Shown here: positions 15,767 to 60,071 of the stretch, in pieces
Numbering within the stretch: the stretch's first letter is position 1
How the letters are laid out: the number at the start of each line of letters is the position of its first letter
DNA from: Candidatus Poriferisocius sp.
GTDB lineage: Bacteria; Actinomycetota; Acidimicrobiia; Acidimicrobiales; Bin134
Assembly: GCF_965204015.1 (NCBI RefSeq)
Contig: NZ_OZ241965.1
Coordinates: 567,991 to 631,990 of the forward strand
Length of the DNA stretch: 64,000 nucleotides
Direction: 5' to 3'
The notes under the pieces: model-generated
Told to the model about the DNA's origin: nothing
What the model saw: only the letters and a program-made list of their open reading frames with translations
Databases searched by the model: none
Position numbers and translations under genes: made by a program

Positions 15767-15788
15767 ACTCTAAAGACGACCAGTGACA
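15767..15788 (-). promoter_or_regulatory. PafBC/RecA-NDp-like promoter of recA: TGTCAC-N10-TAGAGT
   Basis: Minus strand CTGTCACTGGTCGTCTTTAGAGT; fits tTGTCRgtg-8nt-TAnnnT class. Confidence 0.8.
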
Positions 15789-15896
15789 GTTTGTCCCCGA
15801 GTAATGACATCAGCGTAGTTACGATGCCCGAATTTCACAAGCACCCCGCCGCTCCTGCCTGCCTGTTTCCCACAAAAATCCGATACGGTGAGCGGT

Positions 15897-16307
15897 ATGT
15901 CAGAGATAGCGTTCAGCGACGAGGAACTGCGCGAGCGGCTGACCGCCGAGCAGTACCACATCACCCAGCAAGCCGGCACCGAGCGGGCCTTCACCGGTAT
16001 GTACTGGGACTGCAAAGACGAGGGCGTGTACCGCTGCCGGGTGTGCGACGCAGTGCTCTTCTCCTCGGAGGCCAAATACGACTCAGGAACCGGCTGGCCG
16101 TCGTTCTACGAGGAGGTCGGCGAGGGCAAGGTAATCCGCCACGTCGACCAGAGCCACGGCATGGTCCGCACCGAGGCGGTGTGCGCCGCATGCGGCGCAC
16201 ACCTAGGCCACATCTTCCCCGACGGCCCCCACCCCACCGGCGAGCGCTACTGCATGAACTCGGCATCGCTTAGGCTCGACCGCGATCTCACCGGAGAGGA
16301 GAACTGA
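15897..16307 (+). CDS. msrB: Peptide-methionine (R)-S-oxide reductase
   Basis: [47 protein letters not shown]. Confidence 0.96.
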
Positions 16308-16308
16308 A

Positions 16309-17085
16309 ATGGGAAGACTGGACGGCAAGGTGGCCCTCATTTCCGGGGGCGCCCGGGGCCAGGGCGAGGCCGAGGTGCGGCTGTTCGCCGCCGAGGGCGC
16401 CAAGGTGGTGTTCGGCGACGTGCTCCACGATGAGGGCGAGGCGGTAGCCGCCGATGTGGGCCCCAATGTCCACTACATCCCCTTAGACGTAACCGACGAG
16501 GGGGCGTGGCAGAAGGCGGTGGACGAAACCATCAACCGCTACGGACCGCCCAACGTCCTGGTGAACAACGCCGGGATCCTCCTGTTCGGGGTGTCGATGG
16601 TGGACACCTCCCTCGACGACTACATGCGGGTGATCAACGTCAATCAGGTGGGCGTTTTCTTGGGCATGAAGTACACAGTGCCGGCCATGATCGAGGCCGG
16701 CGGCGGGTCGATCGTGAACATCAGCTCCACCAACGGGCTGGCCGGCTACGGCGGCACCGTGGCCTACACCGCCTCCAAGTTCGCTGTCCGGGGCATGACC
16801 AAGAACGCCGCCCTGGAATTGGGCAAATACGGCATCCGGGCCAACTCCATCCACCCCGGAGGCGTGGACACCGCCATGACCGCTCCCGACACCCTGGGCG
16901 ACGCCATCTCCGACGAGGACCGCGAGGCAACCTACGCCATGCTCCCCCTTGGCCGGGTGGGCCAACCCGAAGAGATCGCCCGCCTAGCCGTCTATCTCGC
17001 CTCCGACGAATCCTCCTACAGCACCGGCGCCGAGTTCGTCGCCGACGGAGGAATGCTCTGCGGAGTAGTCAATCCCGAGGTCTAG
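16309..17085 (+). CDS. Short-chain dehydrogenase (3-alpha,20-beta-hydroxysteroid dehydrogenase-like)
   Basis: SGGARGQG, NNAGI, NISS, YTASK, NSIHPG. Confidence 0.9.
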   Translation: MGRLDGKVALISGGARGQGEAEVRLFAAEGAKVVFGDVLHDEGEAVAADVGPNVHYIPLDVTDEGAWQKAVDETINRYGPPNVLVNNAGILLFGVSMVDTSLDDYMRVINVNQVGVFLGMKYTVPAMIEAGGGSIVNISSTNGLAGYGGTVAYTASKFAVRGMTKNAALELGKYGIRANSIHPGGVDTAMTAPDTLGDAISDEDREATYAMLPLGRVGQPEEIARLAVYLASDESSYSTGAEFVADGGMLCGVVNPEV

Positions 17086-17095
17086 AACAAAGAGC

Positions 17096-17122
17096 AGGCC
17101 CCTCAATCCTCAAGAGGGGCCT
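17096..17122. terminator. Hairpin between convergent SDR and cinA (probable bidirectional terminator)
   Basis: AGGCCCCTC-N9-GAGGGGCCT. Confidence 0.65.
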
Positions 17123-18359
17123 ATCTGCCAGCCAGAACCCTCATACGGAGGTTGTTGAGGATTGAGACGGTGGTGAACTGGCGGGTGCGCTCGCGGTCGA
17201 AGGGGAACTTGACCTTGGTGGCCTCGACCTGGCCGTTTACCAGGGTGGCCATCCAGACGGTGCCGGGGTCCTCTCCGTCTAGGGGGTCGGGGCCGGCCAC
17301 GCCGGTGACAGCTATGGCGCAATCGGCTCCCAGCAGCTTGGCGGCGCCGTGGGCCATGGCGGTTACGGCCTCCTCGCTGACCACCGGGCCTTCGGGTACG
17401 TCTAGTAGGTCGAACTTCACGTCGCTGGCGTAGGACACCAGGCCTCCTCGAAACACGTCGCTGGCGCCGGGCACGGCTGTGAGGCGGGAGCCGATCAACC
17501 CGCCGGTGAGCGATTCGGCTAGCGCCAGCGTCCAGCCCCGGCTCCGCAGAGCATCAAGCACGGCGGACTCCATGGTCTCGTCGTCGACCCCGAACACGAT
17601 GTCGCCGATGATGCCCCGCACGATCTGCTCCTCGTTGGCCAAGATCTCGTCCACCTCGACCTCGCTGGGGGCTTTGGCGGTGAGCCTTACCTTGAGGCCC
17701 TCCATGCCGGAGGCCAAAAAGGCGATGGTGCACTCGCCGGTTTCGTCCAGCCGCTCGATCTCCTCGTGCAGCTTCTCGGCCAGCCCCGACTCGGAGTCGC
17801 CCCAGGTGCGCAGCGTGCGGCTCTTGATCACGGCAGTGATCCCGGCCCGGAGCTTGAGGTCGGGCAGCACGCACTCCCCCACCATCTGCTGCATCTCCCA
17901 GGGCACGCCGGGCACGGCGTATACCGCCTTGCCGTTGGTCTCCACTTTGAAGCCGGGGGCGGTGCCGGGCATCACCGGCAGCACCTCGGCGCCGTCAGGC
18001 ACGTCGGCCTGGCGCAGGTTGTTCTCGGGCATGGCCCGGCCCCGGCCTCCGAACACCCGGGAGATGCGCTCCACAATGTCGTCGCGTCGCACCAGCTCCA
18101 CCCCCAGAGCAGCGGCGATTACGTCCCGGGTGATGTCGTCTTGGGTGGGGCCGAGCCCGCCGCACATGATCACCGAGTCGCTGCGCTCTAGGGCCTGTTC
18201 CAGCACCGCCTGCATGCGCCCGAAGTTGTCGCCCACCTTGACCTGGTGGTGCGAGTCGATGCCGGCCATCGCCAGCTGCTCGCCGATCCACGACGAGTTG
18301 GTGTCGACAATCTGGCCGAGCAACAGCTCGGTTCCAACCGCGATTACTTCACAATTCAC
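17121..18359 (-). CDS. cinA: Competence/damage-inducible protein A (MocF + NMN deamidase domain)
   Basis: VGTELLLGQIVDTN, GGLGPTQDDIT, GTAPG, AESLTGG, AVTGVAGP. Confidence 0.95.
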   Translation of the reverse strand: MNCEVIAVGTELLLGQIVDTNSSWIGEQLAMAGIDSHHQVKVGDNFGRMQAVLEQALERSDSVIMCGGLGPTQDDITRDVIAAALGVELVRRDDIVERISRVFGGRGRAMPENNLRQADVPDGAEVLPVMPGTAPGFKVETNGKAVYAVPGVPWEMQQMVGECVLPDLKLRAGITAVIKSRTLRTWGDSESGLAEKLHEEIERLDETGECTIAFLASGMEGLKVRLTAKAPSEVEVDEILANEEQIVRGIIGDIVFGVDDETMESAVLDALRSRGWTLALAESLTGGLIGSRLTAVPGASDVFRGGLVSYASDVKFDLLDVPEGPVVSEEAVTAMAHGAAKLLGADCAIAVTGVAGPDPLDGEDPGTVWMATLVNGQVEATKVKFPFDRERTRQFTTVSILNNLRMRVLAGR

Positions 18360-18390
18360 GCAGGGAGGCTATACCGCCGCCCGCCCTCGG

Positions 18391-59088: not shown

Positions 59089-59161
59089 GGTTGGCGCTTT
59101 CCCGAGGATGATTCCTCGTGCCTGGAGGGTGGCCATCACGCTGACCACGAGCGTGGGCTAG

Positions 59162-59183
59162 ACCATAGCGATAGGCAGTGACA
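59162..59183 (-). promoter_or_regulatory. PafBC/RecA-NDp-like promoter of comM-dprA-xerC: TGTCAC-N10-TATGGT
   Basis: Minus strand TTGTCACTGCCTATCGCTATGGT. Confidence 0.8.
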
Positions 59184-59194
59184 ACTGCCCCCCG

Positions 59195-59572
59195 TCAGAG
59201 AACCTCGTTGATGTAGCGGAGCACGGCGTCGATCTCGCCCGCCGACAACAGCCCTCCGAAGGCCGGCATGCGGTCTCTCCCCTCAGCCACGACCGCAGCG
59301 GCATCGGCGAGATCGGGATACGCCTCCACCAGCCGGCCCCGATTCAACCGGGGGCCATTGCCGGTCCCGCTGCCATCGCCGTCGTGACACGATGAGCACC
59401 GGTCGATGTACACCGACCGACCGGCCACCAGCGCCGGATCCGGAGTTCCGTCGGGTCCGGGCCCCACCTCGGGGGAAGATGCCGACCCGCAACCCGCCGC
59501 GATGGCTAGCAGCAAAGCCAGTGCCGCCAGCCAATGGGCAATAGCTTTCCCTCTGGCCACCAGTGGGAACAT
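59195..59572 (-). CDS. Monoheme c-type cytochrome, probable lipoprotein
   Basis: Lipobox-like LAIAAG-C, CSSCH heme motif, GRDRMPAF distal Met; start uncertain (ORF open to 59698). Confidence 0.85.
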   Translation of the reverse strand: MFPLVARGKAIAHWLAALALLLAIAAGCGSASSPEVGPGPDGTPDPALVAGRSVYIDRCSSCHDGDGSGTGNGPRLNRGRLVEAYPDLADAAAVVAEGRDRMPAFGGLLSAGEIDAVLRYINEVL

Positions 59573-59698
59573 ACTGGGATATCGGCTTTGACCCCACACG
59601 GAAGCATCGGCGCACCCGGTTCGACTACTGGTATGTGGCCGTCGGTCTGCTGGTCTGCGTGGGGCTGATCCTGTGGGCCCTGCTGGGCTAGTGGCCAC

Positions 59699-60043
59699 CT
59701 AGAACGCGGCCTCAAGCACCCGCAGATCTCGGCCCACGACCTCGGCAACATCAAATCGAAGCCGCACTGCTCCCGTGCGCTCCTGCTCAGACAGCCACTG
59801 AGCGGCCAACCGGCGTATTCGCCGCTGCTTCTGCCAACCAACCGCTTCGGCTGGCGAACCGAAGGCGTTCGAAGACCGGGTCTTGACTTCGCACACGACA
59901 ACCACAGGCCCACGCCGCACGATCACATCCAACTCGCCGCGGCTGCACCGCCAGTTGCGTTCAAGAATCTCGAACCCATGGCGGAGATACCACCGCACCA
60001 CACGGTCTTCTCCCCAACGGCCCAGCGCCTGCTTGTATGCCAT
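59699..60043 (-). CDS. yraN: YraN family PD-(D/E)xK endonuclease-like protein
   Basis: LGRWGED, ERNWRCSRGELDVI, VCEVKTR, AEAV..KQRRIRRLA, RFDV. Confidence 0.95.
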   Translation of the reverse strand: MAYKQALGRWGEDRVVRWYLRHGFEILERNWRCSRGELDVIVRRGPVVVVCEVKTRSSNAFGSPAEAVGWQKQRRIRRLAAQWLSEQERTGAVRLRFDVAEVVGRDLRVLEAAF

Positions 60044-60049
60044 GCCCCC

Positions 60050-60071
60050 ACCGTACGCATGGGGAGTGACA
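60050..60071 (-). promoter_or_regulatory. PafBC/RecA-NDp-like promoter of yraN: TGTCAC-N10-TACGGT, 6 nt before ATG (leaderless)
   Basis: Minus strand CAACTGTCACTCCCCATGCGTACGGTGGGGGCATG. Confidence 0.8.

Follow-up and report, generated by a model that had tools for sequence, protein, structure and literature searches.

A PafBC-type promoter motif upstream of recA, comM-dprA and yraN in a Candidatus Poriferisocius genome

Among described damage-response promoters, the closest to the sites reported here are those activated by PafBC in Mycobacterium and other Actinomycetes. PafBC is a heterodimer of HTH-WYL-WCX proteins that inserts between region 4 of the sigma factor and the DNA, with the helix-turn-helix (HTH) of PafB reading a GTC triplet; its promoters are silent with RNA polymerase and SigA alone and fire once single-stranded DNA (ssDNA) switches the activator on. 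They combine a -26 element, at positions -23 to -28, with a SigA -10 element and have no -35 element, and cryo-electron microscopy work indicates that promoters without a -35 need an activator (PMC8635444). The same study gives the in vivo consensus as the 22-nt tGTCgg(N10)tA(N3)T, finds only the GTC triplet to be almost invariant across actinobacterial recA promoters, and considers that sigma adaptation is possibly used by other factors too. Here we describe a 64,000-nt stretch of DNA (hereafter, the window) from Candidatus Poriferisocius sp., of the order Acidimicrobiales in the class Acidimicrobiia (contig NZ_OZ241965.1, positions 567,991 to 631,990), in which three sites of this kind lie upstream of recA, of comM-dprA(-xerC), and of yraN. 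To our knowledge, work on PafBC and sigma adaptation has been confined almost entirely to mycobacteria. The Acidimicrobiia are abundant and mostly uncultured bacteria of water and soil, and they have no representative in the published recA promoter alignment.

Three other known systems are relevant to the comparison. The LexA/RecA SOS regulon of Actinomycetota, which acts at promoter P2 of recA, also controls recA and repair genes after DNA damage, but does so by release of repression and not by activation. DriD of Caulobacter crescentus, SiwR, and the WYL activators of Acinetobacter and other Moraxellaceae are likewise SOS-independent and triggered by ssDNA, and they control repair genes and cell-division inhibitors; they are, however, homodimers with other, upstream-located targets and no -26/-10 hybrid geometry. 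Finally, damage-induced competence regulons co-induce recA, dprA, and comM or radA under genotoxic stress. Those of Streptococcus pneumoniae, Legionella, and Helicobacter differ from the system considered here in having competence-specific sigma factors or regulators together with uptake machinery, none of which is encoded in the window.

Three sites with the geometry of PafBC promoters

Scanning the window with TGTCAC-N10-TANNNT (TGTCACNNNNNNNNNNTANNNT) returned exactly three matches, all on the minus strand (Table 1), each directly 5' of recA, comM-dprA(-xerC), or yraN, as read from the sequence and the Pfam matches. An earlier note on this DNA, made from the letters alone, had placed three exact instances of the pattern before recombination genes, and all of them were re-found exactly. 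Its rough figure of about 0.1 chance matches per window agrees with the expectation of 0.10 (standard deviation 0.36) obtained from dinucleotide-preserving shuffles, none of which (0/100) reached three or more matches. When the pattern was loosened to TGTC-N12-TANNNT, with 0.87 matches expected, the identical three sites were recovered and none extra. At every site the -26 hexamer is TGTCAC, including the GTC triplet, and is separated by a 10-nt spacer from a TAnnnT hexamer.

The same sites were ranked highest by weight matrices. With matrices whose training sites all came from other genomes, the three window sites came out on top, at 26.7, 21.8, and 20.1 bits, the yraN site having the top score of the window; in the shuffled-sequence control, the best score averaged 11.4 bits, with a maximum of 17.7. 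To avoid circularity, a further matrix was built from 46 recA sites alone (threshold, at least 12 bits), and it also placed the reported sites first (23.0, 22.0, and 19.8 bits), followed by a match at 14.4 bits. Only these three sites are strong matches among the approximately 55 genes of the window, whose many housekeeping operons are all without the motif. The next-best matches are TGTCAC-N10-GATGGT at 14108-14129 (+), antisense within miaB (14.3-16.9 bits), and TGACAT-N10-TAGGGT at 48656-48677 (+), antisense within rseP (about 14 bits). Both are probably chance matches, although they may, with lower probability, mark antisense promoters.

As the earlier note had recognized, the three sites share the geometry of PafBC (RecA-NDp) promoters, which is to say a length of 22 nt, a GTC-containing -26 hexamer, a 10-nt spacer, TAnnnT, and no -35. 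Scanning with the sigma-70 -35/-10 consensus found no promoter in 15600-16000 or 54600-60500. Judged by sequence and layout, the motif is the known PafBC promoter and not a new one. The window recA site (TGTCACTGGTCGTCTTTAGAGT) and the M. tuberculosis recA PafBC site (TGTCAGTGGCTGTCTCTAGTGT; Table S7, PMC8151990) are identical at 17 of 22 bases and occupy orthologous positions before the gene. At positions 5-6, window-type sites mostly have AC, unlike the GG or AG of Actinomycetes. The proposal that TGTCAC is a variant of this lineage could not be upheld, however, as it lies within the published consensus and M. tuberculosis itself carries TGTCACACCCCCCCGATACGGT as the PafBC-candidate site of radA(-disA), 7 nt from the start codon (Table S7, PMC8151990). 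TGTCAC-ACCCC is an accepted form of PafBC site, and the TGTCACACCCC form also occurs at radA of that species.

Some other assignments were considered and rejected. ClgR has been discussed as the regulator of recA P1 (PMC5656591), but no clgR-like gene is found near the window recA, and P1 was later assigned to PafBC. A promoter for an extracytoplasmic function (ECF) sigma factor does not fit, since a spacing of 10 nt does not permit -35/-10 recognition. The consensus can also be read as a palindrome (TGT-C-ACA), but this was abandoned because the window sites have T or C at position 7.

Conservation of the sites before recA, comM, and yraN

For recA, species-representative genomes were scanned with the window RecA, yielding 80 loci, the closest of which are from Acidimicrobiales metagenome-assembled genomes (MAGs), at 81-85% identity, in keeping with the placement of the window in that order (loci fetched from other genomes, 164 in total for all comparisons, are denoted by L and a number). 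The orthologous upstream regions, whose comparison across Acidimicrobiia the earlier note had suggested, were scanned for the motif. NGTCNN-N10-TANNNT stands 50-170 nt 5' of the gene in nearly every Actinomycetes locus and in 14 of the 17 from Acidimicrobiia; the Firmicutes, Proteobacteria, Coriobacteriia, and Rubrobacter loci all lack it. The Acidimicrobiales sites mostly consist of TGTCAC followed by ACCCC, and those of Actinomycetes of TGTCRG followed by T or A; the consensus of 58 sites from outside the window is cTGTCACAcCCCcTccGTAgGGT. The comparison supports orthology of the window recA site to the mycobacterial recA P1/PafBC promoter. As the promoter class is conserved at recA in Acidimicrobiales, the mechanism would therefore predate the split between Acidimicrobiia and Actinomycetes. 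In the window, about 60 nt separate the end of the site from the GTG at 15706, with AAGGAGG ahead of this start codon, and transcription is predicted to start near 15760, with a leader of about 54 nt.

Two smaller observations concern the recA loci. In L015 and L021, both from Acidimicrobiia, the -26 element is a one-base variant (TGACAC and TGTGAC, respectively), with ACCC and the spacing kept and a LexA box adjacent; TGTGACA and the consensus TGTCACA are reverse complements. The recX gene, which overlaps recA in M. tuberculosis, does not follow recA in the window (14589-14665), where miaB begins 77 nt past the recA stop codon.

The absence of an SOS box at recA, reported in the earlier note, extends to the whole window, in which the LexA box GAAC-N4-GTTC has no match, the region upstream of recA included. 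No LexA homologue was found in the window or in L001-L003. Canonical boxes are nevertheless present in 15 of the 17 other Acidimicrobiia recA loci, 110-320 nt 5' of recA and upstream of the PafBC-type motif, and this combination of box and motif is the dual-promoter layout known from Mycobacterium. The lack of the box is thus a trait of the window lineage (the window and L001-L003) and not of the order, so that LexA independence, as claimed earlier, stands for recA of this lineage and fails for the order. These patterns suggest that LexA control of recA was lost in the window lineage. In L008, lexA lies directly after an M20 peptidase gene, downstream of hflX, and the window has at that position an open reading frame (ORF) for a 104-aa protein.

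The comM upstream regions were compared in a metagenome scan with ComM, which gave 80 loci at 53-86% identity. Adjacency of comM and dprA is found in nearly all of these, and the order comM-dprA-xerC recurs in many. The strict pattern is present within 250 nt 5' of comM in 41 of 75 loci, against a background of about 0.014 per 280 nt; over 1.3 Mb (both strands) there are 67 strict matches, of which 47 precede comM or yraN. With the recA-only matrix, at the same threshold as above, a site upstream of comM was found in 48 of 72 metagenomic loci, compared with 2.7% of background windows. Among the comM sites, the -26 forms include TGTCGG and TGTCAG, both characteristic of recA promoters in Actinomycetes. 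In L097, the closest relative (ComM 86% identical), both the comM and the yraN sites are retained: at comM, TTGTCAC and TAnGGT are unchanged while 6 of the 10 spacer bases differ from the window, and the yraN site, likewise with a diverged spacer, retains its -26 element, -10, GGGGGC discriminator, and ATG. That the sites persist in relatives while their spacers diverge supports the promoter class that had been proposed for comM and yraN.

Because of their overlap (Table 1), comM and dprA would share an operon. Co-transcription of xerC with them is plausible, and no terminator-like site was found between dprA and xerC. Although the comM ORF is mechanically open to 59148, alignments with 80 relatives start at residue 1 of the ComM read from the GTG at 59088, which is most likely the true start. 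The predicted leader upstream of it is non-coding, as the window and L097 differ there by a 1-nt indel that breaks the frame. Across loci L084-L163, comM leaders (60-110 nt) share a 5' box, CGCTCG-N3-4-GCCGGCG, and a short hairpin with a single covarying pair, changed from G-C to A-U in three sequences, and many also have a CCTCC...GGAGG helix sequestering the Shine-Dalgarno sequence, whose extensions vary among loci with complementarity kept. Folding z-scores are modest (-0.05 to -3.0), and no Rfam family was found in the window or in the comM and yraN leaders. The comM leader may be an undescribed translational control element.

At yraN, the hexamer TGTCAC begins 5 nt past the rplS stop codon, and, as the earlier note had observed, six nucleotides (GGGGGC) separate TACGGT from the ATG. 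Upstream sites were found by pattern in 6 of 33 loci (L084, L097, L125, L133, L147, and L149), with L142 found in addition, and are limited to loci where yraN closely follows rplS. In all eight cases, namely these seven loci and the window, the ATG lies 6-7 nt past the -10. Such a fixed distance fits only transcription from the start codon and therefore provides independent evidence for a working yraN promoter, the mRNA of which is predicted to be leaderless. Leaderless geometry, with the start about 7 nt after the -10, is also frequent among PafBC promoters, many M. tuberculosis PafBC sites lying 7-10 nt from the start codon (Table S7, PMC8151990).

Several features of the neighborhood vary among loci. 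In L087 (position 3002), L094 (4098), and L105 (4897), the gene downstream of the motif after rplS is not yraN but one encoding a DUF2469 protein. In the Acidimicrobiales MAG loci L005 (1811) and L008 (2266), the motif is found before ftsK, with the start codon 8-10 nt past the -10; the window ftsK, unlike these, has no motif site. A cytochrome c gene (cbb3-type domain, CSSCH, lipoprotein-like signal) is inserted between yraN and comM at 59195-59698 (-), an arrangement common to a subset of the metagenomic loci, and lepB and rnhB, the usual separators of rplS and yraN, are absent at the window locus.

Table 1. Positions in the window of the putative PafBC-type promoters and associated features
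Feature	Positions	Strand	Details
recA promoter, PafBC type	15767-15788	-	TGTCAC 15783-15788, 10-nt spacer, TAGAGT 15767-15772
recA (346 aa)	14666-15706	-	Pfam RecA 3.3e-143
comM-dprA(-xerC) promoter, PafBC type	59162-59183	-	TGTCAC, 10 nt, TATGGT; 46-nt gap after cytochrome c gene
comM 5' leader (about 67 nt), predicted	59089-59155	-	Conserved hairpins
comM (YifB/Mg-chelatase-like AAA+ helicase)	57556-59088	-	Pfam Mg_chelatase 9.3e-83, ChlI, Mg_chelatase_C
dprA	56415-57587	-	Pfam DNA_processg_A 2.6e-57, DprA_WH; 32-nt overlap with comM
xerC-type tyrosine recombinase	55431-56339	-	Pfam Phage_integrase 8.6e-43; 75 nt past dprA
yraN promoter, PafBC type	60050-60071	-	TGTCAC, 10 nt, TACGGT, GGGGGC (6 nt), ATG at 60043
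yraN (UPF0102, predicted Hjc/NERD-like nuclease, 114 aa)	59699-60043	-	Pfam UPF0102 1.8e-28, NERD 2.9e-05
Weak fourth candidate site	6820-6846	-	CTGTCAC, 9 nt, GACAAT, 6 nt, ATG
ORF, 104 aa	6505-6819	-	One predicted transmembrane helix, no Pfam match

Proposed regulation and alternative explanations

We consider it likely that the three sites are hybrid PafBC-class promoters and that this lineage uses the PafBC mechanism to induce the three units after DNA damage. Each promoter would consist of a T-GTC-AC -26 element placed 10 nt upstream of a TAnnnT recognized by the housekeeping sigma factor, with no -35. DNA damage, sensed as ssDNA, would switch on a PafBC-type activator that induces recA by sigma adaptation; the same activator would induce comM-dprA(-xerC), and with it a helicase for branch migration, a protein that loads RecA, and a recombinase, as well as yraN, the predicted nuclease, as a leaderless mRNA. 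From the likeness of the sites to mycobacterial PafBC promoters, we infer a PafBC orthologue as the activator at all three and DNA damage or ssDNA as its signal.

Some results weigh against this interpretation. With tblastn and PafB/PafC hidden Markov models (HMMs), neither the window nor any of the 164 fetched loci yielded pafB, pafC, or another gene of the HTH-WYL-WCX or wider WYL type. Large protein collections were then searched with M. smegmatis PafB (from PDB 7p5x), the divergent representative P0262, and a profile built from 33 such divergent sequences; a library of representatives at 50% identity was also searched, and 30 divergent representatives were looked up in clusters. Among the matches listed for PafB relatives, the named organisms were only Actinomycetes or Nitriliruptoria, an outcome of little weight for Acidimicrobiia. 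At position 7, where A is the Acidimicrobiales consensus, the window sites carry T or C. In addition, the list of mitomycin-induced PafBC candidates of M. tuberculosis passes directly from Rv2886c to Rv2972c (Table S7, PMC8151990), and dprA (Rv2896c), comM (Rv2897c), yraN (Rv2898c), and the DUF2469 gene (Rv2901c) are all absent from that list; comM, dprA, and yraN are therefore putative members, proposed from motif conservation.

As for where a regulator gene might lie, pafBC is normally linked to the pupylation locus, usually next to pafA. One PafB locus, L164, has the usual order pafA, FKBP genes, pafB, pafC, tatA, tatC, helY. Two published observations lend the preferred interpretation indirect support: Acidimicrobiales have a pupylation locus (PMC3511204), and a census of WYL proteins includes, from an Acidimicrobiia MAG, a class A (HTH-WYL-WCX) protein of 316 aa (supplement, PMC6789036).

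That no PafBC orthologue was located in the lineage (in the window, the fetched loci, or the matches listed) agrees with an alternative that we judge unlikely, in which the architecture is the same and the -26 element is read by another WYL protein or by an unrelated sigma-adaptor of Acidimicrobiia. Positions 5-7 of the element do differ systematically, being AC(A/T) compared with RG(T/A) in Actinomycetes, and sigma adaptation by further factors has been suggested (PMC8635444). Against this, the recA site is continuous from Mycobacterium to Acidimicrobiales, with GTC and spacing unchanged, the TGTCACACCCC form is listed as a PafBC-candidate site before the induced radA of M. tuberculosis, and a change of regulator under unchanged geometry is less economical. 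Rather improbable, in our view, is a promoter class that is constitutive or responds to something other than DNA damage, such as growth phase or oxidative stress: although the motif also stands before ftsK and the DUF2469 gene in other loci, and the mycobacterial PafBC regulon includes oxidative-stress genes (PMC8223512), all the window sites stand before recombination or repair genes, as do most of the sites conserved in relatives, the many housekeeping operons of the window are all without the motif, and promoters without a -35 need an activator (PMC8635444). A chance coincidence of short words can hardly be credited; the pattern has only nine specified bases, but the shuffles did not reproduce the three matches, orthologous positions are conserved in dozens of loci, and matrices trained elsewhere rank the sites as the top three.

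There is also the explanation that a dedicated regulon for natural competence is present, with a competence regulator binding the motif and co-inducing recA, dprA, and comM. These three are core late-competence genes in transformable species, and cinA lies near recA, but the 64-kb window contains no comEA, comEC, or pilus genes, cinA is without the motif, and the recA motif is the same as an experimentally defined DNA-damage promoter in mycobacteria; we regard this explanation as very improbable. The coupling to transformation or competence advanced in the earlier note is speculative, as DNA-uptake genes are missing from the window and both ComM and DprA occur widely among bacteria that are not naturally transformable. 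Damage-induced recombinational repair, rather than competence, is the parsimonious reading.

Under the preferred interpretation, of PafBC-type induction after damage, a known response system would be present in a bacterial class, and at target genes, that are new to it, the known mechanism itself being unchanged. In the literature searched, no paper names PafBC together with dprA, and comM-dprA and yraN look undescribed as PafBC-type targets, yet as such they are widespread in environmental Actinomycetota. The conserved comM-dprA site, with that of yraN in one sub-lineage, points to DNA-damage induction of proteins known mainly from natural transformation, and bears on the role of ComM and DprA in non-competent bacteria. 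The motif would also offer a simple sequence handle for predicting the damage regulons of Acidimicrobiia, and the apparent loss of LexA control, if true, would be a natural experiment in the rewiring of a two-branch response. A broader picture is possible, although we hold it to be doubtful: a lineage without the LexA arm at recA, and possibly without LexA, would have a PafBC-type activator as its sole damage regulator, the regulon would have been ancestrally wider (with the ComM-DprA module, YraN, and perhaps a small division inhibitor of the membrane), ComM and DprA would be damage-induced repair factors in non-transformable bacteria, and the comM message would be further controlled by its structured leader.

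A weak fourth candidate and the window context

The window has 19 TGTCAC hexamers. The earlier note had stated that those it had checked outside the three sites lie in genes and lack the -10; a fourth is in fact intergenic, at 6841-6846 (-), and is followed after 9 nt by GACAAT. With the spacer one base short and a -10 that begins with G, this weak candidate was missed by the fixed-spacing matrix. Between its hexamer and the ATG of the 104-aa ORF lie 21 nt (6820-6840), arranged as for a leaderless mRNA, and the flank CAACTGTCAC agrees with those of the other sites. The candidate is unchanged in L001-L003, whose closeness to the window makes this uninformative, and no homologue of the 104-aa protein was found in more distant loci. 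The lexA/nrdR neighborhood of actinomycetes encodes damage-induced division inhibitors. By analogy with chiZ and divS, it is a reasonable guess that the 104-aa membrane protein is such an inhibitor; chiZ (Rv2719c) of M. tuberculosis is a PafBC candidate (Table S7, PMC8151990).

Overall, the window is a typical actinobacterial core segment with nearly all genes on the minus strand. The gene order includes ffh, rpsP, trmD, rplS ... rpsB, tsf, frr, dxr, ispG, proS, nusA, and infB, then truB, rpsO, pnp, dapB, dapA, the RNase J gene, ftsK, pgsA, cinA, and recA, and, after recA, miaB, miaA, dapF, hflX, and nrdJ. On the strand opposite to almost all of these genes, 27275-30811 (+) encodes a 1178-aa protein with about 15 RCC1 repeats, and this stretch shows an unusual AT skew and a weaker codon-position GC contrast.

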